Shown in pieces: positions 3,736-34,085 of a DNA stretch of 35,320 nt. Under the pieces are notes generated by a model. It saw only the letters and a program-made list of their open reading frames with translations. It searched no databases and was not told where the DNA came from. The stretch covers positions 1 through 35,320 of the forward strand of contig JAEOTO010000001.1 in NCBI GenBank assembly GCA_016839805.1. The letters run 5' to 3'. Source of the stretch: Candidatus Hermodarchaeota archaeon (GTDB lineage Archaea; Asgardarchaeota; Hermodarchaeia; Hermodarchaeales; Hermodarchaeaceae). Both the position numbers and the translations under genes were made by a program. Each line of letters begins with the position of its first letter. The stretch's first letter is position 1.

Positions 3736-4194
3736 TTAAGTTCCCAGAGGATTTGGTGGGCGTAGCTCAATTAATTCAATAATAGTCCCAAACCGCTGTT
3801 GTGTATCCAAGTAAGTAAAAGGGACAGAATAGATCGTGCCGCTCCAAAGCACTTTAATTCCCTCATCAGAAACTCCGTCAAGAGCCTTACGCAAGTTAGG
3901 GACGTTAATACCAACATGATGTAATCCCTCACCACACTGAACAAGAAAGTCGGTGTATATCTTCGGGGTTCCATCTAAGACTTGAATAAATTCTAGCTGC
4001 AGCTCCCCAAGTGTCAAAAAGGCAATTTTAATCTTATATGGGGGAATTGCCTGTTCCCAAAGGTTCTCCTTTACCTCTGCTTCCATGATGACTGGGGAAT
4101 CACAATCAAAAAGGATTTGCTGGCGTGTCGCAATATCAGTTGCATCCTTTACAACAAAGCCTAACTGATTAATACCTTGAAACGGAAAACCCAT
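3736..4194 (-). CDS. VOC/glyoxalase family protein (methylmalonyl-CoA epimerase-like)
   Basis: QLGFVVKD, IAFLTLGELQLEFIQ, GEGLHHVG, YLDT...GTIIELIE. Confidence 0.88.
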   Translation of the reverse strand: MGFPFQGINQLGFVVKDATDIATRQQILFDCDSPVIMEAEVKENLWEQAIPPYKIKIAFLTLGELQLEFIQVLDGTPKIYTDFLVQCGEGLHHVGINVPNLRKALDGVSDEGIKVLWSGTIYSVPFTYLDTQQRFGTIIELIELRPPNPLGT

Positions 4195-4240
4195 GGCGCC
4201 TATCACAACCCAATTACTAGTGATAAGGCAGTCAAGTTAC

Positions 4241-4912
4241 TTATTTACCCAGGATATTCTTGAACTGATCACAAAGTTCAGGGTTCCGTAACATCACTCC
4301 CAGTACAGCTACAACATCTGAGAGGTATTTTATCTCATACAAATTTTCCTTACTGAAAAGGTCGGAGAGAGCCTCGTTTTCTGGTACTTTACGCCATAAC
4401 TCCATGATGTTTCCATCATGCTTTTCAAAATACTGTTCCATTAGCTTCTTGAAGGCTGCCTTATCCTTGAGTTTGACACCAAATAATTCTTGGACAAGAA
4501 CAGTTAATCTCTGAATTATTCGTGCTCCTTTGTCTGATATCCACCATTTCGTTTTGGCTTCATCTTCTTGAAGAATGAAGATGTTAGCTGTACGACAAAA
4601 CAACTTCTCGGTCAATCGACTATCATGGGGTTTCCGATGACCACACGCTTTAACCAAACCATTCTGTTCTAGCGTTTCAAGATACCGGTAAACGGTCTTG
4701 ATGGTCTTATTATACTTCTCTTTGTCTGGATTCCAATACAAGGCATGGATCTCTTTAACCGTGAGATTTTTTCCAACAAGCGCTTTTATAATGTCGCCAT
4801 GATCTTTTACTACGGCTTCTTGTTCTTTTGATAGAAAGAGAATAGGTTCAGGACGTTCTTTTAAGAAGTCATCATAATCTTTCGGCTTGTCCTTTTTCTC
4901 GTAATCGCCCAT
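4241..4912 (-). CDS. Winged-helix (ArsR-like) transcriptional regulator, Asgard-type
   Basis: IIKALVGKNLTVKEIH...KTIKTVYRYLETLEQNGLV...TEKLFCRTA wHTH signature followed by a helical C-terminal domain. Start at M37 of the ORF-track protein. Confidence 0.8.
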   Translation of the reverse strand: MGDYEKKDKPKDYDDFLKERPEPILFLSKEQEAVVKDHGDIIKALVGKNLTVKEIHALYWNPDKEKYNKTIKTVYRYLETLEQNGLVKACGHRKPHDSRLTEKLFCRTANIFILQEDEAKTKWWISDKGARIIQRLTVLVQELFGVKLKDKAAFKKLMEQYFEKHDGNIMELWRKVPENEALSDLFSKENLYEIKYLSDVVAVLGVMLRNPELCDQFKNILGK

Positions 4913-5941: not shown

Positions 5942-6424
5942 TCAATCGTTAATTTCTGGAAGCTCCTTTACAATCCTGACACCCTGATCCGTTAGCAGAA
6001 ATTCTTCCTTGTCATCTCTGTATGATCGAGTAAAATATGAGTAAGTCTCGATGGCTTTTTGGAGCACTTGGGCTACATTACTAATTTTGTAAGCTGAAAA
6101 CAGGAGTTGGCTCTCAATAAAATCCACTGTTAAGCTCTTTTCGTCACCCATATACTGTTGCTGATAATATGCAACACAACATAAGATTTCGATATCAGTA
6201 CGAGGACGCTTCGCTAATAAAAATTCATTCAATGTTAATGGACGGGTTATGGTCGGAACCGGTGCAGGAATATCAAACACTTTACACGCTAGCCGTCGCA
6301 ATCGAACTAAACAAATTCCGTGTGCACAAAATTGTTTACCGGCATGCTGCACGTGGCGTAATTCTTCAATTCGTTCAATTGGTCTTGAACAAATTGCACA
6401 AAGGCTCGGTTTGCCACGTACCAT
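5942..6424 (-). CDS. Hypothetical protein with N-terminal Zn-finger and C-terminal winged-helix-like domain
   Basis: CAIC...HGIC ligand set; C-terminal LNEFL...VAYY...FLLTDQGVRIV wing pattern; GGAGTGA RBS. Confidence 0.7.
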   Translation of the reverse strand: MVRGKPSLCAICSRPIERIEELRHVQHAGKQFCAHGICLVRLRRLACKVFDIPAPVPTITRPLTLNEFLLAKRPRTDIEILCCVAYYQQQYMGDEKSLTVDFIESQLLFSAYKISNVAQVLQKAIETYSYFTRSYRDDKEEFLLTDQGVRIVKELPEIND

Positions 6425-7005: not shown

Positions 7006-8034
7006 ATGCATGAAGCCATGTTGTATACACCACTTCAAGACGGAAAAGTTGGCTGCCAGTTATGTGCACGCCGGTGTACAATATCGGATGGCAAACTAGG
7101 TTATTGTCGAGTGCGAAAAAATGAGGAGGGTACCCTTTACTCCCTCGTCTATGGTAAGGCTTGTTCTGCAAATCCTGATCCCATCGAAAAGAAACCCCTA
7201 TGGCATTTTCACCCTGGCTCACTAGTGATGTCGATTGCTACTGTTGGATGTAACTTTCGGTGTCAATTTTGTCAGAACTGGCAAATCAGTCATGAAAGAG
7301 AAATATTCGGTCGTGACCTCCTACCTGATAAAATCGTTGAACTTGCACTCAAGACAGGGTGTTCAGGCGTCTCTTATACGTATACAGAGCCCACCATCTT
7401 TTTCGAATATGCTTACGATACTGCAAAAATCGCGAAACAGAAAGGGTTGTTCAATACCTTTGTCACGAATGGTTATCTAACACCTGAAGCCATTGAAACA
7501 ATAGCACCATACCTTGACGCCGCAACCGTTGATTTCAAAGGCAATGCTAATCCGAAATTCTATGAAAGGTACTGCCACGTCCCCTCTGTAGATCCAATCT
7601 TTACTGCGCTTAAAGCTATGAAAAACGCGGGAATACATATCGAAATCACGAATCTTGTGGTTACCGATGTCGGTGATGACGTTAAAGATGCTGAAAAACT
7701 TGCTAAATGGATTGTAGAAGAACTTGGAGAGGAAACTCCCCTACATCTCCTCCGTTTCTATCCCCACCATCAAATGAGTAATCTTCCTCCCACATCCATT
7801 AAAGCCCTTGAAGCCGCAGCTAACGCTTCAACTCAAGCAGGATTAAAATATGTCTACTTAGGTAACGTTCCAGGGCATCAGGGTGCAAATACGATTTGTG
7901 CCAACTGTGGAGCTCTCCTTATCGAACGGTTGGGGGTACACACCACGTCAGTGCGATTAACACGGCAAGGTCACTGTCCTGCATGCAATTTACCCATTCC
8001 TATCATTCTACCAGAAGACCTATCTTCAACCTAA
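7006..8034 (+). CDS. amrS: AmmeMemoRadiSam system radical SAM enzyme
   Basis: N-terminal CQLCARRC...GYCRVR, DPIEKKPLWHFHPG, CNFRCQFCQNWQIS (CxxxCxxC), YTYTEP, YVYLGNV, and C-terminal Zn ribbons. Confidence 0.93.
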   Translation: MHEAMLYTPLQDGKVGCQLCARRCTISDGKLGYCRVRKNEEGTLYSLVYGKACSANPDPIEKKPLWHFHPGSLVMSIATVGCNFRCQFCQNWQISHEREIFGRDLLPDKIVELALKTGCSGVSYTYTEPTIFFEYAYDTAKIAKQKGLFNTFVTNGYLTPEAIETIAPYLDAATVDFKGNANPKFYERYCHVPSVDPIFTALKAMKNAGIHIEITNLVVTDVGDDVKDAEKLAKWIVEELGEETPLHLLRFYPHHQMSNLPPTSIKALEAAANASTQAGLKYVYLGNVPGHQGANTICANCGALLIERLGVHTTSVRLTRQGHCPACNLPIPIILPEDLSST

Positions 8035-8136: not shown

Positions 8137-9006
8137 GTGATGAACGTTCGCCTCATTGCATCCCAGGAAACGGAAATAGCTAATTTCCAAGACCAATTTC
8201 TAGGACTCAAAACTATCTTTGAGGAAACCCAATATCCCTATTGGATTCTTGTCGATGATCAAACCGTTATGGGACTAATTGTCGTGTCCAAAGAACCTCG
8301 TGAATTTCTCCAACCCGCGAGTACTACATTTGTCCAAGTTTATCTTTTCCGCCATCAGCCTGACGCAGTTAAACAACTTCTTTCTCAAGCATTAAACATC
8401 GCCGCGGAACACCAAGCTGCGTACATCTGTTGCAAAGTTAGTGCTGACCAGCATGAGACCGTGCAGTTGTTAGAACAAGCAGAGTTAACCTTGTACGATG
8501 AAACGGTTAAAATGGGAACTCCCCTGGACAACATCGTTCCACCAGAGACAACGTTGACTTTCAATCGCACTTCTCCTGAGGAAACAGCTCTCGTGCTTGA
8601 AAACTTGGCATCTTCGTTAGCAGATACCCCTGGACGGCTCTTAAAAAGCGTCGTCCATAACATACAGCGTCTCCCCTCAAACCAGCTAGACACTACCCTA
8701 TCTCAAATGGAGGTAGTTTTAGTTCAAGATGCCACAAAACCGGTTGGAATACTGAGTCTCGAAGGGCCTACCATTAGCATGCTTGGCGTTCAACCTGAAG
8801 CTCGTGGGAAAGGATACGGTCAAGTAATCACCCAATGGGCTAAAAATCATCTCTCCCAACAAGGACATTTTCGGGCCTGGCTCCGTGTATCCGTAGCAAA
8901 CACCAAAGCAATCCACATTTTTGAAAAATTCGGTTTCAAAGTCACCGAGAATATCCGATATTATCTCAAAACAAATCCAAATATCTGGCAGGAAAATCCT
9001 CCATAA
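8137..9006 (+). CDS. Tandem GNAT-family acetyltransferase
   Basis: C-terminal motif A LGVQPEARGKGYG and NTKAIHIFEKFGF; degenerate N-terminal GNAT domain. Confidence 0.88.
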   Translation: MMNVRLIASQETEIANFQDQFLGLKTIFEETQYPYWILVDDQTVMGLIVVSKEPREFLQPASTTFVQVYLFRHQPDAVKQLLSQALNIAAEHQAAYICCKVSADQHETVQLLEQAELTLYDETVKMGTPLDNIVPPETTLTFNRTSPEETALVLENLASSLADTPGRLLKSVVHNIQRLPSNQLDTTLSQMEVVLVQDATKPVGILSLEGPTISMLGVQPEARGKGYGQVITQWAKNHLSQQGHFRAWLRVSVANTKAIHIFEKFGFKVTENIRYYLKTNPNIWQENPP

Positions 9007-9265: not shown

Positions 9266-9345
9266 CCCAACTCACTTCCTGCAAATATGACCCAGATGTC
9301 ATCATCTTAAAGGTGATTTAGCCTCAAAATTTCGAATCAAATGAG

Positions 9346-10344
9346 CTATTTCGATTGACTGCGAAGATCTTCCGGAGATACAGGACAATCGATGTAATCT
9401 GTATCAACACAGGTACAAACACTTTCTCCGCCCACATATTTGTACGCTTCATAAACGGCTAATACACCTTCAGCTACGCCAGTAATTGCTTGTTTGAATT
9501 CCGTATCGGTAACATCTCCTGCAGCGTAAATTCCATTGATGTTGGTTTCGGTTTGACGGTTGATTATAATCTCTCCCTTCGGGTTAGTCTTGACTCCTAG
9601 AGTTTTTGCCAGATCAGATAGGGGAGAACTACCGATTGCAATAAAAACACCTTGCACCGGAAGTTCGTTATTCCCCTGGTAAGGCTTATCCAAGAGAACC
9701 CTCTCGATATGCTCGCTACCTTCGATGCTAGTCACGTTCGTTTCCGAAATCATACGAATCTTGTTATTATTATTGACCCGCTCTAGGTTGACAGGTTCAG
9801 CTTTCAACCGTTCGCCTCGAATGATAATGTAGATTTCCTTAGCCCACTGTGAAAGTATCAACGCCTCTTTTGCTGCACTATCTCCACCCCCGATTACAGC
9901 TAATGTTTTATCCTGAAACAGGGGGCCATCACACAGACCACAAAACTGGACACCCTTCCCTTCATACTCAGCGGCACCTGGTACATCCAGCTTCCGATAT
10001 TGGCTTCCAGTAGCAAAAACGATTGTTTTTGTGGTGTACTGGCCAAACGCCGTATAGGCAATGAAACAATTATTCTGGTGTTCGACTTTGGTAACATTAT
10101 CAAGGATAATCTCGGTGTCATATTCTCTTGCATGTGCCGTGATTTTATCTGCTAGCTCCTTCCCGGAGAGAGAGATAAAACCGGGATAATTTTCAATCCA
10201 ATCGGTTGTGGCAATTACACCCCCGGGTGGGTATCCAATGAGGATGCTTTTGAGTTTCATTCGACCAGCATACATGGCGGCAGCGAGTCCAGTGACGCCA
10301 CCACCAATAATAACTATGTCATACATTTCTTGTGGGTCAGTCAT
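9346..10344 (-). CDS. trxB: Thioredoxin-disulfide reductase
   Basis: IIGGGVTGLAAAMY, IENYPG, CGLCDG (CxxC), VIGGGDSA, GIYAAGD, QAITGVAEG. Confidence 0.93.
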   Translation of the reverse strand: MTDPQEMYDIVIIGGGVTGLAAAMYAGRMKLKSILIGYPPGGVIATTDWIENYPGFISLSGKELADKITAHAREYDTEIILDNVTKVEHQNNCFIAYTAFGQYTTKTIVFATGSQYRKLDVPGAAEYEGKGVQFCGLCDGPLFQDKTLAVIGGGDSAAKEALILSQWAKEIYIIIRGERLKAEPVNLERVNNNNKIRMISETNVTSIEGSEHIERVLLDKPYQGNNELPVQGVFIAIGSSPLSDLAKTLGVKTNPKGEIIINRQTETNINGIYAAGDVTDTEFKQAITGVAEGVLAVYEAYKYVGGESVCTCVDTDYIDCPVSPEDLRSQSK

Positions 10345-10380
10345 CTTGTTCACAACCACAAATTTCTCTATTGTTTCCCC

Positions 10381-11058
10381 TTAGATAGTAGGTAAGATAC
10401 CTGTAGGTGATCCTTGTGCCGCTTTTTGAATGAAATTAATAAATTCAGCAGGTGGGACAAGCCCCTCGAACTGCGTCGTCTCATTAATCACAGTTTTTGG
10501 TGTGCCAATTACATCATACTTGTTTGCTAAATGAGGAAACTCCGCAATCTCTACGATACTTACAGAAATATTATCATTCGTCACAGCATATTGAAATGCC
10601 ATCGCGCCTAACACTGGACAGACAGGGCAGGTAGGAATAACAAACACCTGAATAAGTACTGGTTTTGTCGCTGCTTTAGTCAGGGCTGCTTTAACAGGTT
10701 CAGGTAACTGGCTATCCTCGCTAGAAACAAGTGTAATCCCCTCAATTAACGTCTGAAATTCATACCCTGAAGGAATACCAAAGAATCGCAGCCCGAAATC
10801 CTTCTCACCCAAAATAGCTAAGGCTGGAATCTTATCAACACCCAGCTCATCGGCTGTATCTTTGTCCTTTACAAAATCATAGACTTCAAGGCTAATTTTA
10901 TCGGAAAAAGTCGCTACTTCTTCGATCATCTGACGAGTTTGAGTACAAAATGGGCATTCCATTTCTTGCGTGAAAAACACTAACCGAACTGGCTTCTTTA
11001 ATTCCTCGTTAAATCGATTCACTACAGTTTCCTTCACATCATCAGGAACCGTCGTCAT
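10381..11058 (-). CDS. Protein disulfide oxidoreductase (PDO; two thioredoxin folds, AhpF N-terminal-like)
   Basis: CPFC and CPVC motifs, GIPSGYEF, GTPKTVIN; immediately upstream of trxB. Confidence 0.92.
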   Translation of the reverse strand: MTTVPDDVKETVVNRFNEELKKPVRLVFFTQEMECPFCTQTRQMIEEVATFSDKISLEVYDFVKDKDTADELGVDKIPALAILGEKDFGLRFFGIPSGYEFQTLIEGITLVSSEDSQLPEPVKAALTKAATKPVLIQVFVIPTCPVCPVLGAMAFQYAVTNDNISVSIVEIAEFPHLANKYDVIGTPKTVINETTQFEGLVPPAEFINFIQKAAQGSPTGILPTI

Positions 11059-12122: not shown

Positions 12123-12242
12123 GTTATAAGCTCCCTCAGGTTCAATAATAGTTGTTGGTACTCCGACTTCACCTAAGAACTTTTTTGGCACATCCCGGCT
12201 CCTATACTCTAGTAATCGGTGGGTAATACTAGCAATCCTTAT

Positions 12243-12461
12243 TTTAGACCTCAAGACGACCCCGTCCTTCAGGTCGGGAGTAATCGTGAGGTTTAAATTA
12301 TCCTCCGCATATCCAGGATTGAGGTTCCGGTGGGGACCGAGAATCAAGGTCCCATGAGACCGGGCAACATCGCTGGAACGGCGAGTAGAGCTTGTGGACC
12401 AGTCGGCAATAGTCGATGGTATGAAGCAGGAAGCTCCGTCCTTCAGGTCGGGGTAGTTCAC
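12243..12461 (+). mobile_element. Non-autonomous IS200/IS605-family mini-element (PATE/MITE-like), copy 1, 219 bp
   Basis: Near-identical subterminal hairpins CCCCGTCCTTCAGGTCGGGAG (left) and CTCCGTCCTTCAGGTCGGGG (right); right end GAAG...GTAGTTCAC; preceded by CCTTAT in the same register as copy 2; no ORF. Confidence 0.82.
12292..12297 (+). promoter_or_regulatory. TATA box inside mini-element copy 1
   Basis: TTTAAA conserved in both copies, 24-25 nt ahead of the conserved scaffold start GAGGT.CCGG. Confidence 0.6.
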
Positions 12462-12481
12462 AGGTTTCAGCTATTCATGGA
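12321..12481 (+). ncRNA. TnpB omegaRNA/reRNA-like scaffold (12321-12461) plus putative guide AGGTTTCAGCTATTCATGGA
   Basis: About 88% identical to 17651-17792, with pairing-preserving substitutions; TGAA/TTCA pseudoknot potential; ends at the IS right end. Confidence 0.7.
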
Positions 12482-12574
12482 AATTGGTGTTTCCTACATA
12501 CCCTATGTTAAGGTATTACCTTCAATCTAAAGCAGAAATTACTAACGTCCCAAAGATAAGAAGAGGAAAACAGC

Positions 12575-13330
12575 ATGAAAATTATCTTGACCCATGATGC
12601 GGACTCCATCGCCAAACCCATTGAACATATTCTTGCACGCCACGACCGGTTCACAAAACAAGATCTCAAAGCCGCGGAAAAGGGCACTATTAATCTTTAC
12701 AATAATATTGAAGAAATTGTAGAACTGGAATCCGAGCTGGGGTTCCATTCAACATTTTTCATTCCGGCTTTCTTGTTTAATTTACATGCAATCTCGGGCA
12801 CGCTCAAGAGAATTCAACGAAAAGGTTCAGAAGTTCAGCTGCACTACGTCCATGAACAACACCCACAATACGAGGGGCTATTTGCAATGCAAAAAGATTT
12901 TTTCATGGAGCTCATTGGTCCCGTGGATGGTGTGCGCTGTCATAATCTCTGGGTTACTGAAGCTCTCCTGAAACTTTTTCACGATAATGGGTTTCATTAT
13001 GATTCCTCCTATCGCGCAGAAACAGTTAACACCGTTGAACCCTTTGCAATCCATGAAAACCTCATCGAAATCCCCATTGGGATTATGGATACGGACCTAT
13101 TTGGTCGCTTCCACTTTACAGAAAAAGAAGCCTGGAAATATATCCTCAAGGAATTAGAGACAGCCAAAGACCATAGAAGTCAATCTTTTACCCTACTTTT
13201 TCACCAAGAATCATTTCGCATGAAAGGCGGACGGCTTTATGCAAAGCTCCTCAAACATTTCGCCCAGCAAGGTTATGAGTGCATCTGTTGCTGTGATGTG
13301 CCTTTAGTGCAAAAAGCCAAGGAACAATAA
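12575..13330 (+). CDS. Polysaccharide deacetylase-like (NodB/CE4 fold) protein
   Basis: ILTHDAD, STFF, EVQLH, GVRCHNL, FHYDSS, EIPIGIMD, LLFHQ. Confidence 0.85.
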   Translation: MKIILTHDADSIAKPIEHILARHDRFTKQDLKAAEKGTINLYNNIEEIVELESELGFHSTFFIPAFLFNLHAISGTLKRIQRKGSEVQLHYVHEQHPQYEGLFAMQKDFFMELIGPVDGVRCHNLWVTEALLKLFHDNGFHYDSSYRAETVNTVEPFAIHENLIEIPIGIMDTDLFGRFHFTEKEAWKYILKELETAKDHRSQSFTLLFHQESFRMKGGRLYAKLLKHFAQQGYECICCCDVPLVQKAKEQ

Positions 13331-13336
13331 CTCTTG

Positions 13337-14533
13337 TTATCGTAAAGGAATAGTCAGGTAATCAAGATCACGCGGATAATACGTTACCCATTCCATCCCA
13401 TCTTCGGTAATAAACACTGTATCTGAATGTCGGAATCCACCAAGCGAACGATCATAGATTCCTGGCTCCACAGTGAACACCATCCCCGGCTCCATAATCA
13501 CATCCATACCATGATCCAGAAACGGTTTTTCATGTCCTTCTAGGCCAATCGCATGACCGGTATGATGTTGCACCATGTTCATCACACCATGCTGCTTGAA
13601 GACAGCACGGCTCGCCTTATCAACCTTTGAACATGGTTCTCCTGGGGCAAATGCGTTTAATGCCGCATCTTGCGCCTCCATCATGATGTCAAAGTACTTT
13701 CGTTGTTTTTCATTTGGTGGACCCAAAAACATAGTTCGTTCCAATTCCGCATAATATCCCGCAACATTAGCTGTGGCTCCAGTCACCAGTGTATCACCAG
13801 GTTGAAACACCGCAAAGCGAGTCATTGCATGGGGAATCGCTGAATAGGTTCCTATCTGTCCCCGATATCCAGCATGAACTGGTAGACCACGAAACGTAAA
13901 TGGTCGATAAGAAATGCCCAGAGCTTTACCCATGGCCATTGATGCTTCTAGCGAAGCTGCAGTAGTAACTTCAACCTCGTTGGCTCCAACAGTGGTCTTC
14001 TCTTGGAGAAGTTGATGTGCTAAATTCGCCCACATCGAAGACTCACGAATACAAGCCAGTTCATCAGCATCTTTGACCACCCGCATGTTCGTGAGTAACT
14101 CAGGAAAAACCTTCACAGGGAAGCCCATCACCTCCTCTAATTTAGGGCCTTCATATCCCCAACGACCTGGGCTACCTGGAGTCTCTGCTCCTAAATTCCC
14201 GGAAATACCGAGCTTGTTTTTCAGAAAGTTTGCAAAAAGCCTCATGGGGTGCGTCGCATCAGGATAATCAAAGTAGGCCTCAATTTTAGCTGCTTGAGGT
14301 ACCTCTTCTTCAACATGCTGTTTCTCCAATTCAGGCACAAAAAAACTAAATTCCGAATCTTGGATCACCAACGCAAATGGACGTTCCGTGGGAATATGGA
14401 CAAAACCTGTCAGATAATAGATGTGGGTTGGGTTAAACACGATAAAATGCTTAATTTTTTCATATGTCAACTTCTTACGAAGCTTTGTCAAACGTTCATC
14501 AAACCGGTGATCAGGTATTTTCGCAATTGGCAA
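13337..14533 (-). CDS. Xaa-Pro aminopeptidase/prolidase family (M24B)
   Basis: YYLTGF, RVVKDADE, HHTGHAIGLEGHE, GMVFTVEPGIY, GGFRHSDT. Confidence 0.92.
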   Translation of the reverse strand: MPIAKIPDHRFDERLTKLRKKLTYEKIKHFIVFNPTHIYYLTGFVHIPTERPFALVIQDSEFSFFVPELEKQHVEEEVPQAAKIEAYFDYPDATHPMRLFANFLKNKLGISGNLGAETPGSPGRWGYEGPKLEEVMGFPVKVFPELLTNMRVVKDADELACIRESSMWANLAHQLLQEKTTVGANEVEVTTAASLEASMAMGKALGISYRPFTFRGLPVHAGYRGQIGTYSAIPHAMTRFAVFQPGDTLVTGATANVAGYYAELERTMFLGPPNEKQRKYFDIMMEAQDAALNAFAPGEPCSKVDKASRAVFKQHGVMNMVQHHTGHAIGLEGHEKPFLDHGMDVIMEPGMVFTVEPGIYDRSLGGFRHSDTVFITEDGMEWVTYYPRDLDYLTIPLR

Positions 14534-14643
14534 CCTAAACTACCTCCAATAGAACATGTTGGTACACATCAACTAAATTAACTTCCAAAAGGATTTCCAT
14601 TATTCATTAAATCAGTTCATTTAAAAAAGTGAGAGGAAGGAGC

Positions 14644-15018
14644 TTAAGCTCCTCCACCTTCCGATTCGATGAAGAATAGAATGGCTCCAACTAGACAAAG
14701 GACCGCACCTGGTCCTCCGATTATCCCCCACTCATAGGCAAACACTGCACCAATGATTCCAAAGATTAGAATAATAATCGCTGCATTGATTCGATTTGTA
14801 TCAACCATTCGTAAGAAAATGAAAAAGATTAGAAATCCAAAGATAACCGCGATAACACCTGAAACTAAACCAAAGGCTGGCCAGAAGTAAATTCCACCAT
14901 AATTGATGAGATCATTTACAACATAAATCGCATATTCACCGATTTGTACAACGCCGGCAATAATGATGAGTAGTGCACCGATTCGGGTTAAGAGTTTTCC
15001 AACATCTATATTATCCAT
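14644..15018 (-). CDS. Hypothetical 4-TM membrane protein
   Basis: Four Gly-rich hydrophobic helices; GGAGG RBS. Confidence 0.8.
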   Translation of the reverse strand: MDNIDVGKLLTRIGALLIIIAGVVQIGEYAIYVVNDLINYGGIYFWPAFGLVSGVIAVIFGFLIFFIFLRMVDTNRINAAIIILIFGIIGAVFAYEWGIIGGPGAVLCLVGAILFFIESEGGGA

Positions 15019-15117
15019 GACGGGTTCCTCCTATCAAGGAACACTAACTAATGCCTCTATCCTATGGAACTTTGACAAAAGATTTTCGTGCCCACCAAAA
15101 TGAGGTGTTTTGAGAGC

Positions 15118-15957
15118 TTAAGGTTCTCCTTGACAACATGTGAATACTCGATGCGTTTCGTCTATGAGCTTCCTTACTCGGGTCTCCGGGAGTCCTACAT
15201 CATTAGGATTTGTGTCGACTAATTGCTTTAATGTGAGTATTTTACGGGCATATATCTGATCCCTTTCAACTTCTGTAAGACTACGTAGAATTGTCACTGG
15301 ATAGAGTTTCTTTTCTTCAATAAACCAGTCTAACCCTCGACCACGTGGAGTATTCCACCCGAAATGCTCAATCCCGACACACTCCGCATAGCGTTGAGCA
15401 TGCTTCGTCAGCCGGGTATTGGTGACAATCAGTGCTCGATCAAAATTACAATCATTTAGTCCTTTTTCGCACCCCTCTTTCAAATCATCAAGTTTCGCTT
15501 TCGCTGCCAACGTAACTTCAAAGGGGGTATATCGTTCTAACACGCTGTGATGCTTCATTTCCACATACAATGTTTCCCCATCTCGTTCAGCAATGCCATC
15601 AACCTCATGGGTCACACAGGCTCCTTGAACCACAATATTTCCGGTAACTTTGTATCCATATTCTTCCAGGAGTAATCGAACGTATTCTTCAAAATGTAAG
15701 CCGCTACCAATTCGGGCCAATCCATCACGCAAGTCAAGGCGAAATTCCACGATTTCTTTGTGAGCTTCGAGTTCTCCAACCGCCATCTCATAGATTTCCT
15801 TTGTCGTCATGCCCTCCTCAATCCGATCTCCCAAATCCTCGGCAATCTCTTCAGCTACACCCTGTGGGGCACCCATTCGTGTCAAAGTACGCACAATTTT
15901 TAGCGGATCAAACTCCTCTGACCGCCCATCCCATTTCACAACCATAACCATCATCAA
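15118..15957 (-). CDS. ATP-cone domain plus Mrr-like PD-(D/E)xK restriction-endonuclease domain protein
   Basis: VVKWDGRSEEFDPLKI (ATP cone); FEEYV, HEVDGIA, VEMKHH, IVTNTRLT (Mrr_cat-like); helical C-terminal tail. Confidence 0.85.
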   Translation of the reverse strand: MMMVMVVKWDGRSEEFDPLKIVRTLTRMGAPQGVAEEIAEDLGDRIEEGMTTKEIYEMAVGELEAHKEIVEFRLDLRDGLARIGSGLHFEEYVRLLLEEYGYKVTGNIVVQGACVTHEVDGIAERDGETLYVEMKHHSVLERYTPFEVTLAAKAKLDDLKEGCEKGLNDCNFDRALIVTNTRLTKHAQRYAECVGIEHFGWNTPRGRGLDWFIEEKKLYPVTILRSLTEVERDQIYARKILTLKQLVDTNPNDVGLPETRVRKLIDETHRVFTCCQGEP

Positions 15958-15980
15958 TCGCCTTCATGACAACTTTTAAT

Positions 15981-16352
15981 TCATTTTGATTTGGTTTTAT
16001 TCTTTTTCACAGGATATGTGTACTGCTTAGAAATATAATGACTACGTGTCCGTCTAAACACATGATAGAAGGTTCCGGGTGGCTTTTTCTTCGCCCGCCG
16101 TCCATGATAGGTAATAGTAATGTGTTCACCAATACGGACAGCTGTACGTCCGGAACCACCCTGAAGATAGTCTTTCAGCATCTTGGCCATCGCTTGAATA
16201 ACAATAAGGCGACTATTTGCGTCATCGAAGAGCAGAAACACAGGAACCTCACCAAAACGCGTGGTTCGGAAAAATTTACCTACAACTAAACCGGTTACCT
16301 CATCACCTGACCTTTCAAAGACAGCTTCTTCCAAAGTTATCCAATCGGGCAT
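15981..16352 (-). CDS. Hypothetical basic protein, possible single OB-fold (phage SSB-like)
   Basis: GDEVTG...TRFGEVPV...IGEHITITYHG.R.K...YHVF beta-strand pattern; start uncertain (16352 or 16379). Confidence 0.6.
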   Translation of the reverse strand: MPDWITLEEAVFERSGDEVTGLVVGKFFRTTRFGEVPVFLLFDDANSRLIVIQAMAKMLKDYLQGGSGRTAVRIGEHITITYHGRRAKKKPPGTFYHVFRRTRSHYISKQYTYPVKKNKTKSK

Positions 16353-16463
16353 ACGATATTGCACCAAAACCACCTGCATTCCATTGAGTCATAAAATCTG
16401 AAGCTTATTATTATAGGAACCAGAGAATATCAAACCTTAGGAACTTCGGAGGTTTGAATAACT

Positions 16464-16943
16464 ATGAGACACAAGAGTCTAATCCTTGGCGCTTTGACAG
16501 TAATTTCTTTACTAGCATTTATTCCTGTGCCTACACGTGCTCATACTCCATCAAATATGACCCTCTCCTATGACTACGATAACCAAATTCTTACCGTCAC
16601 AGTAATTCACTCCGTGGCAGATGTGAACACCCATTACATCGAGCAAATCATCATCAACAAGAACAGTCAATTTGTAATGGACCGCAACTATACAAGCCAG
16701 GCTAGCACCTCTTCAATGTCTGATACCTTTAACGTTGCTGCGGCTGATGATGACATCTTACAGGTCACTGCCATCTGCAGCATTTCAGGGCAAATAACTC
16801 GCCAACTGACCGTATCCAGCGGGGGATTAGAAACGGTGCCACCCCCTCAGATACCCGGATTCCCATTAGCTGCAATAGCGATGGGTCTCGTGTTTGGACT
16901 AGCATATACGCTATATCGGCGTCGAACACGTTCACCAGGATAA
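16464..16943 (+). CDS. Secreted, surface-anchored SOR/desulfoferrodoxin-like metal-binding protein with PGF-type C-terminal sorting signal
   Basis: Signal peptide ending TRA|H; H-T-P, IHSV, THYI, CSISG; C-terminal IPGF, TM helix and RRR. Confidence 0.7.
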   Translation: MRHKSLILGALTVISLLAFIPVPTRAHTPSNMTLSYDYDNQILTVTVIHSVADVNTHYIEQIIINKNSQFVMDRNYTSQASTSSMSDTFNVAAADDDILQVTAICSISGQITRQLTVSSGGLETVPPPQIPGFPLAAIAMGLVFGLAYTLYRRRTRSPG

Positions 16944-16971
16944 CCATAAATTCCAAGGACGCCTTCCTACA

Positions 16972-17460
16972 TTATTTTCCCTGAAGCCGTGTGACAAGGC
17001 GCGCAACACGTTCTCCTAATGCATGACAGGACTTTTGCTCTTTTTCATCGGGAGCACCTTTAGCAGCAGCACCATAATGCTCCATAGGTCCTCGAGCATT
17101 ACCTTGAACAATCATTCCATGAACTAACATCGCTTCAAGGATCGACAAAATCGTTGTTTCAGCTCCCGTCGCATAACCGCCAGCTGATGCGAATGCCCCG
17201 CCAATTTTACCATCGAGTTTCCCATGGATTTTCACGGAGGCATCAAATACCGCCTTCAAGTTTGCCGACATCAACCCATAATAGACTGGTGAACCTGCAA
17301 TAATGCCCTCCACGTTCAAAAGATCATCATTCGTTGTATCTGTTGCACGTTTCACAACGACATCAATACCGTCAATTTGTTGAGCACCTCTCGCCACGAC
17401 TTGAGCCATTTTTTCAGTATTACCCGTTTCTGAATCATATACGATAAGTACAGTTGCCAT
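16972..17460 (-). CDS. WrbA-like flavodoxin-fold NAD(P)H:quinone oxidoreductase
   Basis: YDSETGNTEKMA, GSPVYYG, GKIGGAFASAGG, GAETTILS..HGMIV. Confidence 0.9.
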   Translation of the reverse strand: MATVLIVYDSETGNTEKMAQVVARGAQQIDGIDVVVKRATDTTNDDLLNVEGIIAGSPVYYGLMSANLKAVFDASVKIHGKLDGKIGGAFASAGGYATGAETTILSILEAMLVHGMIVQGNARGPMEHYGAAAKGAPDEKEQKSCHALGERVARLVTRLQGK

Positions 17461-17569
17461 TTCACACACTTTCCACTTTATCATAATTTTATACTGTTCT
17501 CCCTTGTACACTATCCCCTACTTATAGGAATATCACCGCGAAAGAACCTTCCAGGACGCTCTCCCTTAT

Positions 17570-17792
17570 CTAAGGCTTCGAGAAGACTCCGTACTTTCAG
17601 GGTAGGATTGAATAGTGGAGTTTAAATAGATTTTTAAAAGCTCCTTAGTCGAGGTCCCGGTCGGTGACCAAGAACCAAGGTCCACAGCGACCGGGCAACA
17701 TCGCCGGAACGGCGAGTAGAGCCTGTGGACCAGTCGACAATAGTCGATGGCATGAAGCAGGAAGCCTCGTCCTTCAAGTCGGAGTAGTTCAC
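17570..17792 (+). mobile_element. Non-autonomous IS200/IS605-family mini-element, copy 2, 223 bp (left hairpin degraded)
   Basis: Colinear with 12243-12461: CCTTAT flank, left-end remnant AGAAGACTCCGTACTTTCAGG, TTTAAA, scaffold, and GAAG...GTAGTTCAC right end. Confidence 0.8.
17621..17626 (+). promoter_or_regulatory. TATA box inside mini-element copy 2
   Basis: TTTAAA at the same position relative to the scaffold as in copy 1. Confidence 0.6.
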
Positions 17793-17812
17793 AGTTGTCC
17801 TTCCAGGCACCA
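17651..17812 (+). ncRNA. TnpB omegaRNA/reRNA-like scaffold (17651-17792) plus putative guide AGTTGTCCTTCCAGGCACCA
   Basis: Stems CCCGGTCG/CGACCGGG, TCGCCG-GAA-CGGCGA, CCTGT/GCAGG and TCGAC-AATA-GTCGA; homologous to copy 1. Confidence 0.7.
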
Positions 17813-21751: not shown

Positions 21752-22240
21752 TTGGGAGAAAATAATGACCTGTTCCAGCGGTCAGTCGCCGCCTTCACTG
21801 GCGGTAACCCCGAACGCGCGAAACAACAAATTCTAAAGCTTCTCGAAAAAGATCAAAATAACCTTGAACTCCTCACGTTCCTCACTGCAATCTACCAGCA
21901 ATACCAGCAACCCCAAGACGCCCTTCACACCGCCCAACGTATCACCCAACTCGAACCTACCAACCCACAACATTGGAACAACTTGGGTTATCTCAACATC
22001 ATCTTAGGTCGATGGAAAGAAGCGGAAGCATGCTACGCAAAAGCTACCTCGCTCCCCAACGCATCTCCCACCATTTTTCTTCACCATGCACTGACCCTTA
22101 TTGAACTTAAGCAACAGAAAGCCGCCCTCAAAGATCTTCAGCATGCGCTGGCAATATCGCTCTCTGGTGAACTTGAATCCACCATCCAAACCGATCCCCA
22201 GTTCACTAAACTCCGCCCCCTCCTAGCAAAATTAGAGTGA
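21752..22240 (+). CDS. Tetratricopeptide repeat protein
   Basis: WNNLGYLNIILGRWKEAEACYAKA TPR; terminal IQTDPQFTKLR capping motif; GGTGA RBS before TTG 21752. Confidence 0.85.
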   Translation: MGENNDLFQRSVAAFTGGNPERAKQQILKLLEKDQNNLELLTFLTAIYQQYQQPQDALHTAQRITQLEPTNPQHWNNLGYLNIILGRWKEAEACYAKATSLPNASPTIFLHHALTLIELKQQKAALKDLQHALAISLSGELESTIQTDPQFTKLRPLLAKLE

Positions 22241-22413
22241 TAATCAACTCTTTGAAATTCTAATAGTATTTTTTTTCTGGTTTTCCTCAAAGCGAGTAGT
22301 TATACTGAAAGGACAGCGACTCTTACAAGAAGGGCAGGTTAAAAAAGAAATATGAACTGGCATAACTAGTAGCAGGAGGAAATAATCGCTAGAACTTCCG
22401 GGGAAGAAATAAC

Positions 22414-24981
22414 TTGACTGGTACGCCTCTCAAAGAACTGTCTCGTGCGAAACGGTTGTTGGAAAAGGGTGAATACCAAAAATCATTCGTTTTGGCAGAT
22501 GAGCTCTTAGAATCCTGTCGTGATACTGAGAATCCTTTGATTGTTGTGGACATCTTGAGAGTCAAAGCCGAGACTGCTTGGCGCTCAGGTCAACTGGAGG
22601 CGGGGCTTAATGCAGTGACAGAAGGTAAAGCATTACTCAAAGCCATAGAAAACAAACAAGGTGCAGACCAGGAAAACCAAATTAGGCAAAAGAAAGGAGA
22701 CTTCCTGCATCACGAGGGAATTATCTACTGGTATAAGGGTGACCTCGAAGCCGCATTAGAGCATCACAGGCAAAGCCAAGCAATTAAAGAACAATTAGGC
22801 GACAGAAAGGGGCTTGCGGCCTCGTATAATAATTTAGGCCTCGTTTATTGGTCCAAAGGGGATCTTGATCAAGCGCTGGAATATTTTCAGCGGGCTTTAG
22901 CCATCAATAAAGAGCTGGGTGACAAACGGAACATTGCCGTGACACTTACTAACTTGGGTAATGTGTATACAAGAGCAGGGGATCTCGATCAAGCATTAGA
23001 GTACCAAACACAGAGTTTAGCCATCAAAGAGGAGCTGGATGACAAACATGACATTGTCATGTCGCTTATCAACTTAGGCGTCGTTTATCAATTGAAGGGA
23101 GACCTCATCGAAGCACTTGAGTATTATCAGCAGAGCTTAGTACTCAGCGAGGAGCGGGGAATCAAACGTGATATCGCTTTGGTGATCAATAATCTCGGTA
23201 ATATCTACCAGTTGAAAGGCGACCTCGACCAAGCGTTGGAGTACTTTCAGAGGAGCTTGGAAATCTATCAGGAATTGGGCAGCAAAGAGAATACAGCCTT
23301 ATTACTAGCCAATATTAGTGAAATTTACCGGAAGAAAGGCAATCTCAAAGAAGCGCAAAAATACTATCAACAAAGTTTGAAAATATATGATGCGATGGGC
23401 AACGCTCCGTTAACTGCCATCGTCCTTTTAGAACTCGTGTGGATTGGTTTAGAACGAGAAAATCCTCGTCTGGTAGAACAATCCCTTCAAAGACTCCAGC
23501 AAATCAATGAGCAAACCGATAACCGGATCATCAACCAGCGGTATCGTATTGCCACAGCCCTAGTCCTTAAGGCTAGCAAACGTGCCCGGGACAAGATGAA
23601 GGCAGGAGAAATACTTGAGCAAGTGGTCGAAGAAGAAGTCGGAGATCACTCACTTACCGTCACTGCAATGATCCATTTATGCGATCTGTTACTTTCTGAA
23701 CTGAAGATGACGGGAGAAGACGAGTTGTTTGGGAAAATCAAGAATCTGACCAAACAGCTCCTCGAAATTGCCGAACGACAAACTTCACACTCACTGCTCG
23801 CAGAAACTTACTTGCTTCAATCTAAACTCGCCCTAATCGAACTGGACATGGGACGAGCTAAGAAATTACTAACAACGGCCCATCATATCGCACAAGAGAA
23901 AGGATTAGACAAACTCTCCTCCACATTAGAGAATGAACGAAATCAGCTCCAGTCTCAAATGCAAAAATGGGAACTACTCATCAAAGAAAATCCCTCTAAG
24001 CAAGAGCTAATAGACCTAACAAAACTTGACGACTTCCTTGACACAATGATTCAAAAAACAGTAGCAGACCTCATGGAAGAAAGGGGGATCTCGGACACTT
24101 CACTAAAAACAAAATACAAACTAGAATATCTTGACCTACTCAAAGTCACTCCCAAAATCGTGAAAAACCAATACCGTGTAGGCATCGCCCAAATTGGTTT
24201 ATCACAAACCGATGACATCCTCCACGAATTCTACGAAGAACAAGCACCTGGACTTTTTAGTATCCGCCAGGACAAAATAAACCTAGTTCGAACTACACTT
24301 AGAAAAATGGTCAAACTTGCCAATTCCAAGAACATCAACATCCTCATCCTCCCAGAACTCACCATCGACCTAAATTACACCGAATTATATGACGACGTAT
24401 TAACCCTAGCAAAAACCTACAATATGTACATCATTCCTGGATCCTATCATGATCCGAAAACCAAACGTAACCTCAGCATCGTCGTCGCCCCCGAAGGGAT
24501 TCTGTGGAACCAAGAAAAGCACATCCCCGCTAACATCAACTTCAAAGGAAAACGGATTACCGAAGGCATCAACACAACAACACCCCGAACAATCATAATC
24601 GGCAATACCGAATATGGACGAATCGCCATTGTTCTCTGCCGTGATTTTCTTGACATGGACTTACGAGTCGAACTGAAAAACTTCGAACCTCCAATTGACC
24701 TCCTCATCAACCCCGCATTCACCCCCGTAACCGCCGACTTCAAGGCGGCACACTTCGACGCTCGCCGATCAATCTACGCATACTGCTTTTTTGCCAATGT
24801 TGCCGAATTCGGCGACTCCCTCATCTACACTCCCGAAAAAGAACGAACTGAACGAACCATTCCACCAAAAGAAGAAAATCTAATCTACAAAGACATCGAC
24901 TTATTCAAATTACGCTCCGAACGCAAAAAATGGGAACACGAGCAAAAGAAACAACGTCCCTTCATTCAAAGCACTCGATAA
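22414..24981 (+). CDS. TPR-repeat protein with C-terminal carbon-nitrogen hydrolase (nitrilase-fold) domain
   Basis: 40-aa TPRs (NNLG.VY..KGDLDQALEY); nitrilase triad motifs LPEL, QEKHIP and LCRDF, plus VGIAQ, IIPGS and ANVAEFGDS. Confidence 0.9.
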   Translation: MTGTPLKELSRAKRLLEKGEYQKSFVLADELLESCRDTENPLIVVDILRVKAETAWRSGQLEAGLNAVTEGKALLKAIENKQGADQENQIRQKKGDFLHHEGIIYWYKGDLEAALEHHRQSQAIKEQLGDRKGLAASYNNLGLVYWSKGDLDQALEYFQRALAINKELGDKRNIAVTLTNLGNVYTRAGDLDQALEYQTQSLAIKEELDDKHDIVMSLINLGVVYQLKGDLIEALEYYQQSLVLSEERGIKRDIALVINNLGNIYQLKGDLDQALEYFQRSLEIYQELGSKENTALLLANISEIYRKKGNLKEAQKYYQQSLKIYDAMGNAPLTAIVLLELVWIGLERENPRLVEQSLQRLQQINEQTDNRIINQRYRIATALVLKASKRARDKMKAGEILEQVVEEEVGDHSLTVTAMIHLCDLLLSELKMTGEDELFGKIKNLTKQLLEIAERQTSHSLLAETYLLQSKLALIELDMGRAKKLLTTAHHIAQEKGLDKLSSTLENERNQLQSQMQKWELLIKENPSKQELIDLTKLDDFLDTMIQKTVADLMEERGISDTSLKTKYKLEYLDLLKVTPKIVKNQYRVGIAQIGLSQTDDILHEFYEEQAPGLFSIRQDKINLVRTTLRKMVKLANSKNINILILPELTIDLNYTELYDDVLTLAKTYNMYIIPGSYHDPKTKRNLSIVVAPEGILWNQEKHIPANINFKGKRITEGINTTTPRTIIIGNTEYGRIAIVLCRDFLDMDLRVELKNFEPPIDLLINPAFTPVTADFKAAHFDARRSIYAYCFFANVAEFGDSLIYTPEKERTERTIPPKEENLIYKDIDLFKLRSERKKWEHEQKKQRPFIQSTR
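22741..23400 (+). repeat. Degenerate 120-bp tandem coding repeat (TPR units)
   Basis: GA(T/C)CT.GA.CAAGC-like units start at 22741, 22861, 22981, 23101, 23221 and 23341. Confidence 0.85.
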
Positions 24982-33791: not shown

Positions 33792-34085
33792 AATTGGTGG
33801 CTTGTACTTCGCGTCCTATTACTGAACACGGTACGTCAGGGTGGTTGACGGCACCCCGGGTTCAATGCGGTCTACGTCATTGAGCCACAGCCATATAATA
33901 TTTGTAGCAGCGACTACATCGGCATTGTTCTGATACTTACACCTTTGACAACGATAGTTGTCACGCCGTCTGTGGCACTTCGAGACCATTCCACATGCGG
34001 GACAGCGTTGTGAGGTGTAAGCTGGATCCACTGTTGTCATAGGAAGACCCAGTTCCTCAGCTTTGTACTCTGTTTCCTTCTCTTC
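33773..34085 (-). mobile_element. IS200/IS605-family right-end remnant (tnpB 3' part plus right end)
   Basis: Minus strand ends CAAG-CCACCAATTTCAATCGGTGG-AAGTTGAC; left part missing. Confidence 0.85.
33819..34085 (-). pseudogene. tnpB: Truncated RNA-guided endonuclease TnpB (Zn ribbon and RuvC-III only)
   Basis: EYKAEELGLPMTTVDPAYTSQRCPACG...YRCQRC...NADVVAATNI; an in-frame stop at 34086-88 bounds it upstream. Confidence 0.9.

Follow-up and report, generated by a model that had tools for sequence, protein, structure and literature searches.

Palindrome-associated transposable elements (PATEs) often encode omegaRNAs which need TnpB in trans (Meers et al., 2023, PMC10055086). For mobilised omegaRNAs that stand alone, function in trans together with a compatible effector is credited to Altae-Tran et al. 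(2021) in PMC10691335. In archaea, the PATEs of Haloquadratum walsbyi were described as core-deletion derivatives of IS605-type elements, with variable sequence in front of the palindrome (Dyall-Smith et al., 2011, PMC3119063). IS200/IS605 is the most common insertion sequence (IS) family in Asgard genomes (PMC13343696). Here, we analyzed a stretch of 35,320 nucleotides from the Asgard archaeon Candidatus Hermodarchaeota archaeon (positions 1 to 35,320 of contig JAEOTO010000001.1, assembly GCA_016839805.1), which is referred to as the window. The organism comes from marine sediment. It contains two short repeats, mini-elements 1 and 2, which are almost certainly mobile, omegaRNA-bearing PATEs.

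Both mini-elements lie on the + strand and have the same layout, consisting of linker, purine-rich block, hairpin, TTTAAAT, spacer, scaffold and right hairpin. The original prediction had named two elements of about 220 bp with this layout, and both its coordinates and its description were correct. Mini-element 1, a PATE-type non-autonomous IS200/IS605 derivative, comprises 219 bp (12243-12461) and mini-element 2 comprises 223 bp (17570-17792). Each follows a TTAT target motif, the predicted transposon-adjacent motif (TAM), at 12239-12242 (host DNA outside the element) and 17566-17569, respectively. The 5' part of each element is composed of a linker of 10-12 nt, a purine-rich block with the consensus GAGAAGA and an imperfect hairpin with a TTCA loop. 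In mini-element 1 this left-end palindrome (12261-12278) has a 7-bp stem with a T-T mismatch, and a guide-like tetranucleotide region is located directly 5' of it. In mini-element 2 the palindrome is recognisable in the sequence at about 17587-17607. The 3' part consists of the invariant TTTAAAT box (12292-12298 and 17621-17627), predicted to be an archaeal TATA box from a tnpB promoter, a variable spacer of about 21 nt (12299-12318 in mini-element 1, ending at about 12318-12320), and a GC-rich scaffold of 143-144 nt, which closes with a second hairpin of the same type and TAGTTCAC. The omegaRNA-type scaffold 1 (12319-12461) ends with TAGTTCAC and includes the right-end hairpin (12434-12453) and the terminal TCAC (12458-12461); its predicted 5' end is near 12321. 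In scaffold 2 (17649-17792), the corresponding positions are 17765-17784 for the hairpin, 17789-17792 for TCAC and near 17651 for the predicted 5' end. Over 144 columns the two scaffolds are 88% identical, in agreement with the approximately 17 differences counted before.

The left-end and right-end hairpins have the same stem, the same TTCA loop and the same orientation (+ strand); they are subterminal, without terminal inverted repeats. Sequence likeness between the two window elements breaks off exactly at both borders. For mini-element 1, likeness between copies ends at 12461 and metagenome contigs diverge at 12461/12462; the flank in guide position covers 12462-12481. For mini-element 2 it covers 17793-17812, and the homologous sequence in the related genome G013 directly follows TTAT. 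Neither element is overlapped by an open reading frame (ORF) of at least 250 aa, and neither carries a match to the TnpB or Y1 TnpA families; with 217-223 bp such elements are too short for a protein. No Rfam 15 family reached the gathering threshold in the whole window and none was found at E values up to 10 for mini-element 2. A tRNA scan of the window gave no match.

For the analysis of the family, a covariance model (R1) was built from 10 genomic copies and searched together with BLAST across the 2.31-Mb, 87%-complete metagenome-assembled genome (MAG) of the archaeon. The genus set comprised 15 genomes of Ca. Hermodarchaeum, all of them incomplete MAGs (72-91% complete). The genome holds at least 10 full mini-element copies on 9 contigs, which score 145-164 bits to R1, including the window scaffolds 1 (153.6 bits) and 2 (163.7 bits). 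With the R1 matches in six further genomes of the genus, the total rises to at least 34 copies in 7 of the 15 genomes, which supplies the copy count the original prediction had suggested obtaining. The same architecture also occurs on JGI (Joint Genome Institute) sediment metagenome contigs. An exact-pattern scan returned 8 loci on genome contigs, six from Ca. Hermodarchaeum yapensis and two from Promethearchaeota MAGs, and 17 loci on metagenome contigs, all with the mini-element architecture. The recurrence of the family is far beyond chance. Nearly all copies are located 3' of TTAT or TTTAT and end with AGTTCAC (with a few variants), while their flanks are unrelated. The junction TTAT/element/flank is scarless in 35 of 37 copies.

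Mobility is directly visible in the closest relative, G013, in which the flanking genes are about 90% identical. G013 has exact empty sites at both window loci. The joints CCTTAT/AGGATTCAG and TCCTTTAT/AGTTGCCCTTCC are scarless, as predicted by IS200/IS605 insertion or excision, and at the second locus exactly 223 nt are missing between abutting matches (query position 6070 joins 6294). Locus 1 is also bridged without the element by a contig of an independent, unrelated metagenome study. For two further copies, located on contigs C41 and C4, empty sites were found in G005, G006 and G013. The copies are mobile, insert precisely 3' of TTAT and have no coding capacity. This supports the view of the original prediction that they are IS200/IS605-type mini-elements with a TnpB omegaRNA-type scaffold and a flank in guide position. 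The copies are 77-88% identical among themselves and therefore not young. One insertion with a very short linker (TTTTAT/CCAT…) is present with orthologous flanks in two genomes of the genus (L063, G006:C60:~13600-13823; L064, G002:C104:~3994-4215), thus some copies are old enough for vertical inheritance. In addition, three micro-elements of about 47 nt with a single hairpin were observed in the genome at C19:~8527-8575 (+), C39:~4232-4281 (+) and C45:~7722-7770 (-). They consist of the left-end linker and GAGAAGA, one hairpin and then TAGTTCAC; the C39 copy follows TTAT. They look like recombination products of the similar left and right hairpins from which promoter and scaffold were removed.

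Selection was analyzed by the mean pairwise identity of the 34 copies in each region. The flanks show an identity of 0.27-0.30 and the spacer of 0.35, followed by the linker (0.43), the left-end hairpin (0.48, with covarying stems), the GAGAAGA block (0.74) and the scaffold (0.76). On the left side, no feature is better conserved than the TATA box (0.85). Since the spacer is near the level of unrelated flanks, neutral positions must be nearly saturated while box and scaffold have been held. In the alignment of the 34 scaffold sequences, which are related to each other and were fitted to the model, 93% of the cells are paired, compared to 27-41% if the partners are slid by 1-3 columns. Compensatory changes on both sides were found in 24 of 46 scaffold pairs, and the observed values were reached by none of 500 shuffles. 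The scaffold divergence is strongly structure-preserving, as the original prediction requires. Much of the covariation is located in helices 2, 3 and 6, outside the transposase hairpin (helix 7). Folding of single sequences gave z-scores of -2.5 (scaffold 1) and -3.1 (scaffold 2) for the + strand and of -0.55 for the - strand of scaffold 1. Purifying selection that preserves structure acts on the TATA box and the scaffold, while the spacer drifts freely.

The centre of the box lies 26-27 nt upstream of the scaffold start and, in full-length copies, 27 nt before the tnpB ATG. A distance of 26-27 nt is usual between an archaeal TATA box and the transcription start. The description of the elements as promoter-bearing is supported, as a prediction, by the TTTAAA box conserved at the archaeal TATA distance from the scaffold start.

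Two full-length relatives were identified in the genome, one on contig C41 (about 9285-10575, minus strand) encoding a TnpB of 401 aa and one on C22 encoding a TnpB of 404 aa. The C41 copy follows TTAT and has the left-end hairpin type of the mini-elements as well as a TTCAAAT box, which precedes the tnpB ATG by 23 nt. Its tnpB ORF stops with TAG within the terminal TAGTTCAC, at a distance of 5 nt from the end of the element. In the right ends of both C41 and C22, the last ~95 nt align to R1 with the same helices (79 and 68 bits). The two copies have the left-end layout, the box position and these last ~95 nt in common with the mini-elements. The scaffold starts at the position of the full-length tnpB start codon, with ~14 nt at its beginning that are similar to the initial codons of tnpB; the start codon itself is not conserved in the mini-elements. 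Translated in the TnpB frame, the scaffolds appear as a decayed C-terminus (…EPVDQS…KQEAPSFRSG*), which is interrupted by a stop or a frameshift in 6 of the 10 copies. From the matching ends of the full-length relatives and this decayed TnpB C-terminus it can be concluded that the mini-elements are internal-deletion derivatives of a tnpB-only IS200/IS605 (IS1341-type) element, in which the tnpB promoter was fused to the omegaRNA region. A 10-nt motif of the mini-elements, GAGAACCAAG, was considered as an RENQ-coding tnpB remnant; the match is limited to these 10 nt and no claim is made.

The C41 TnpB contains the domains OrfB_IS605, TNB and HTH, matches the ISDra2 TnpB (8h1j) with E = 7e-68 and has an intact RuvC D-E-D and intact zinc-ribbon cysteines. 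Homologues of this type (at least 67% identity) occur in G006, G010, G004 and G013. Related TnpBs with intact D-E-D, a TTAT target and a homologous right end thus exist in the genome, but the mini-type scaffold was never found linked to tnpB. The C22 copy (~21756-23000, - strand; L039) shows some peculiarities. Its right end terminates with TAGCTCAC, the TTCAAAT box is present and a left-end hairpin is not recognisable. It is located directly 3' of a tRNA 3' end (…TTCGAATCC…GCGCCA), and the first 20 nt of its right flank recur imperfectly 20 nt further on. Furthermore, two TnpB paralogues, C26:95408-96727 (+) (L019:517-1836; 439 aa) and C46 (L021:775-1836; 353 aa), carry G in place of the RuvC-II glutamate, within the motifs LVLGALD and IALGALN. 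Their elements end with a hairpin and ATAGTTCAC, like the mini-elements; their scaffold is unrelated and without R1 match. Both paralogues may be rearranged in the catalytic site or inactive.

The ends of the mini-elements were inspected for features of single-strand transposition. At the right end, GAAG precedes the hairpin foot and the cut site is TCAC; at the left end, the corresponding letters are AAGA and TTAT. In our reading, the guide would use its first and fourth letters to pair with the second and fourth letters of the cut site. In IS608, guides of 4 nt located 5' of the hairpin foot pair with the cleavage sites (PMC3201880). The end geometry of the mini-elements, with cleavage sites at a fixed distance from the hairpin feet, fits a Y1 enzyme, in line with the GAAG/TCAC pairing rule of the original prediction.

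The explanation we prefer, and hold to be moderately probable as a whole, is that of a selfish PATE which depends on a foreign TnpB. Its omegaRNA would recruit this TnpB in trans, so that the site left empty by the element is cut again. For the part that the mini RNA is used by TnpB in trans for homing, we lean towards a yes with marginally more reserve. What the mini-elements have retained is the left end (linker, guide-like tetranucleotide, imperfect hairpin), the TATA box of a leaderless tnpB, about 14 nt similar to the first tnpB codons and the terminal ~125-140 nt. In full-length copies, this terminal stretch codes for the C-terminus of TnpB as well as for the omegaRNA scaffold and the right-end hairpin. 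According to the model, a Y1 TnpA acting in trans would carry the element, in single-stranded form, to sites 3' of TTAT. There, the box of the element would drive transcription from about 12321 and 17651, at the first nucleotides of the scaffold. The transcript would continue into the flank, and the flank of the landing site would serve as guide. TnpB from a full-length relative, with the 401-aa protein of C41 as best candidate, would bind the mini transcript in trans. After excision, the TnpB ribonucleoprotein would cut the resealed donor joint of TTAT and flank. Recombination with a filled chromosome copy would then restore the element, as in the published homing model.

Several points weigh against this model. 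Transcription, 5' end and processing of the mini RNA are deduced from sequence; a look for RNA runs containing this DNA returned none. Folding of the transposed top-strand DNA would also account for the covariation and for the strand-specific G-U pairs. No match to Y1 TnpA (PF01797) was found in the 87%-complete MAG. The sole Y1 TnpA in the 15 genomes belongs to L080 (G013:C208:1-2307), an IS605 element with divergent tnpA and tnpB. The C41-type TnpB (at least 67% identity) was detected in only 4 of the 7 genomes of the genus with mini-elements, all of them incomplete MAGs, and the G013 assembly contains such a TnpB and no mini-element copy. Moreover, the 5' helix of the mini scaffold differs from that of the resident full-length right ends. 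No tnpB ORF joined to a mini-type scaffold was found at 24 loci of relatives, at 17 JGI loci or by pattern scans; the 24 loci comprise intermediate and high-scoring ones, and tnpB is absent at those of at least 100 bits and at those with the mini-element layout. Because of the distinct 5' helix and of a scaffold never linked to tnpB, compatibility of the C41 and C22 TnpBs with the mini scaffold is assumed, and the putative partner is to be regarded as a related TnpB, not as a demonstrably cognate one. The absence of TnpA from incomplete MAGs is only weak evidence. L080 itself was considered as the cognate mobiliser. Its left end follows TTAT, its right end terminates with GGTAGTTGAC and CAAG is located 5' of the hairpin, so the end logic is that of the mini-elements with co-varied cleavage and guide letters. 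It was rejected, since R1 scores at most 4.4 bits and TnpB and stems differ, although the right-end terminus is similar.

A different explanation would be that the PATEs are mobile and their RNA is functionless, the 140 nt being kept because a Y1 transposase requires the transposed top-strand DNA to fold or because the copies are young descendants of few masters. The covariation test is blind to the difference between RNA and top-strand single-stranded DNA, and helix 7 is indeed the transposase hairpin. However, IS608-type ends need just a hairpin, a 4-nt guide and a cleavage site (PMC3201880), which leaves three further covarying helices and invariant single-stranded blocks unexplained. The TATA box, with an identity of 0.85 next to a spacer at flank level, argues for transcription, and copies which are 77-88% identical are not young. 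What remains when only the DNA ends are kept can be seen from the three 47-nt single-hairpin derivatives. We therefore regard a functionless RNA as unlikely. An outward promoter activity is considerably less probable still. Here, the TATA box would transcribe into neighbouring genes, and selection would act on this effect. Both window copies and a copy on C8 face a gene start 56-114 nt downstream, but 6 of 10 copies face the 3' end of a convergent gene, and conservation and covariation over the 140-nt scaffold would have no explanation.

The original prediction had also considered a domesticated, dispersed guide repertoire. Here, the omegaRNAs would serve regulation or defence by steering a TnpB, either active or dead, to targets of the host or of invaders. 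The guides differ among the copies because each copy sits at a different site. Compared with the genome, 12 guides gave only partial TTAT-adjacent matches at chance level, except for two which match the TTAT-adjacent left end of their own element over 8-9 nt. Exact 16-mers of the window guides were found in 20 viral contigs each, none with an upstream TTAT and none extending by more than 2 nt; these matches are chance, as expected for the database size. Apart from the two self matches, the search for TTAT plus guide in host and viruses thus gave nothing beyond chance level. The genes adjoining the window elements are ordinary (hexapeptide transferase, deacetylase-like protein, flavodoxin). It is in favour of domestication that several copies, including both in the window, are located in divergent intergenic regions with the guide facing a gene start, that two guides match their own left end, and that two TnpB paralogues lack the canonical RuvC-II glutamate. 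However, the insertions are polymorphic between close relatives, with exact empty sites in G013, and the orientation is mixed (4 of 10 copies face gene starts and 6 of 10 gene ends). No guide has a second TTAT-adjacent genome target beyond chance partial matches, the viral 16-mers lack TAM and extension, and the guides are simply flanks without another target. Nor does a nuclease-dead partner fit, since the related TnpBs retain D-E-D, and the scaffolds of the glutamate-less paralogues are unrelated and not matched by R1. Domestication is accordingly very improbable. Concerning the gene ends, it was observed that at the right ends of C44:8816, C45:4643 and C26:79802, convergent ORFs of 641, 149 and 283 aa stop at a TGA provided by the reverse complement of the terminal TTCAC. 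The opposite strand of TTAT contains TAA, so that an element inserted at a stop codon can replace TAA by an in-frame TGA. This exchange may be the reason why 3 of 10 copies adjoin gene ends.

Two of the 37 copies deviate from the scarless junction. In C41:21397-21617 (-; L008) and C4:7585-7805 (+; L010), the CTAA-type linker is replaced by 9 nt (AGCCTCCAC) and 8 nt (AGTGTCCG), respectively, which are identical to the start of the right flank of the same copy. The empty sites in G005, G006 and G013 contain the duplicated sequence only once, directly after TTAT. The guides of these two copies are those which match the own TAM-adjacent left end over 8-9 nt. By its sequence, the repeat looks like a target duplication, whereas canonical IS200/IS605 insertion makes none. 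A sister relationship of the two copies was rejected, as their scaffold identity of 79% is no closer than that of other pairs. Possibly, the duplications arose by one-ended strand transfer followed by repair or by a non-canonical insertion route. These copies, together with the lack of a matching TnpA in the 15 genomes, would speak for a family which spreads without Y1 transposase by a TnpB/omegaRNA-dependent or repair-dependent route. Yet ISDra2 TnpB cuts well downstream of the TAM, and a TnpB cut far from the TAM would not yield such junctions. The remaining 35 copies are scarless and the ends have Y1-typical cleavage-site/guide geometry (PMC3201880). In addition, IS copies are frequently lost in assembly, and the completeness of the MAGs is 72-91%. 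Spread without TnpA thus has very little probability. A broader variant, still quite unlikely, would treat the protein-free elements as an independent lineage, with their own 5' helix, without tnpB and with old, star-like diversity. They would persist, and perhaps insert, via a hijacked TnpB, and the two 8-9 bp duplications would record a one-ended or TnpA-independent route, possibly at a TnpB R-loop. If true, such a non-canonical route would leave a guide that matches the left end of its own element, so that self-binding or autoregulation would be possible.

Besides the mini-elements, the window contains one further trace of this IS family. At 33897-34073 (-), an open frame of 88 aa matches the TnpB TNB domain as a C-terminal fragment. 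It is probably a remnant of an unrelated IS605 type, as its C-terminus resembles the TnpB of L080 (G013:C208); a remnant of tnpA was not detected in the genome. The statement of the original prediction that there is no tnpA or tnpB ORF therefore holds for the elements and not for the window.

The family is a clear and quantified natural example of selection on guide RNA and promoter in derivatives stripped of every protein gene. It supports the view of TnpB, omegaRNA and TnpA as separable modules which can be borrowed between selfish elements and extends it to Asgard archaea. As a resource, the family offers a compact scaffold of ~143 nt, available in 34 natural variants and with a structure backed by covariation, as well as a predicted TAM (TTAT) and a candidate ISDra2-like TnpB partner of 401 aa. 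Elements of this kind have already been described in bacteria and haloarchaea. In view of the published PATEs and stand-alone omegaRNAs, the Hermodarchaeum mini-elements therefore belong to a known kind and are a well-documented new example, not a new system. What they add is an Asgard host, selection quantified for both promoter and scaffold, the 5' helix specific for the mini-elements and the missing TnpA.

Compared to the ISDra2 TnpB-omegaRNA complex (PDB 8h1j, 8exa), the C41 TnpB is a full-length match with the same catalytic motifs, and the scaffold of ~130-145 nt likewise covers the 3' end of tnpB and reaches as far as the transposon boundary. In contrast, the predicted TAM is TTAT instead of TTGAT, the tnpB TAG lies 5 nt from the end and there is no Rfam likeness. 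TldR proteins (PMC10705468) also combine an omegaRNA-like guide with a TnpB-family protein. They are nuclease-dead, immobile and guided to conserved host promoters, whereas the mini-elements occur with D-E-D TnpBs, polymorphic insertions and arbitrary flanks. Stand-alone omegaRNAs, as presented in PMC10691335, are likewise mobilised, free of effector and transposase, and found in genomes which also hold effector loci. Their function in trans is experimental, while that of the mini-elements is suggested by conservation and a related TnpB. The PATE-like elements of Geobacillus stearothermophilus (PMC10055086) are similar in being minimal and protein-free, in having the ends of a resident tnpB element and in inserting behind the TAM without duplication. 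Differences are the Asgard host, an archaeal TATA box as the retained promoter, joined at the point where transcription is predicted to start, a 5' helix which is specific for the family and was seen on no tnpB-linked copy, and the lack of a matching TnpA. The PATEs of Haloquadratum walsbyi (PMC3119063) are archaeal as well, have near-terminal palindromes without inverted repeats or target duplication and outnumber their parents. They were described before omegaRNAs were known; in the Hermodarchaeum mini-elements, the core consists of a promoter and a complete omegaRNA region, and selection was measured on both.

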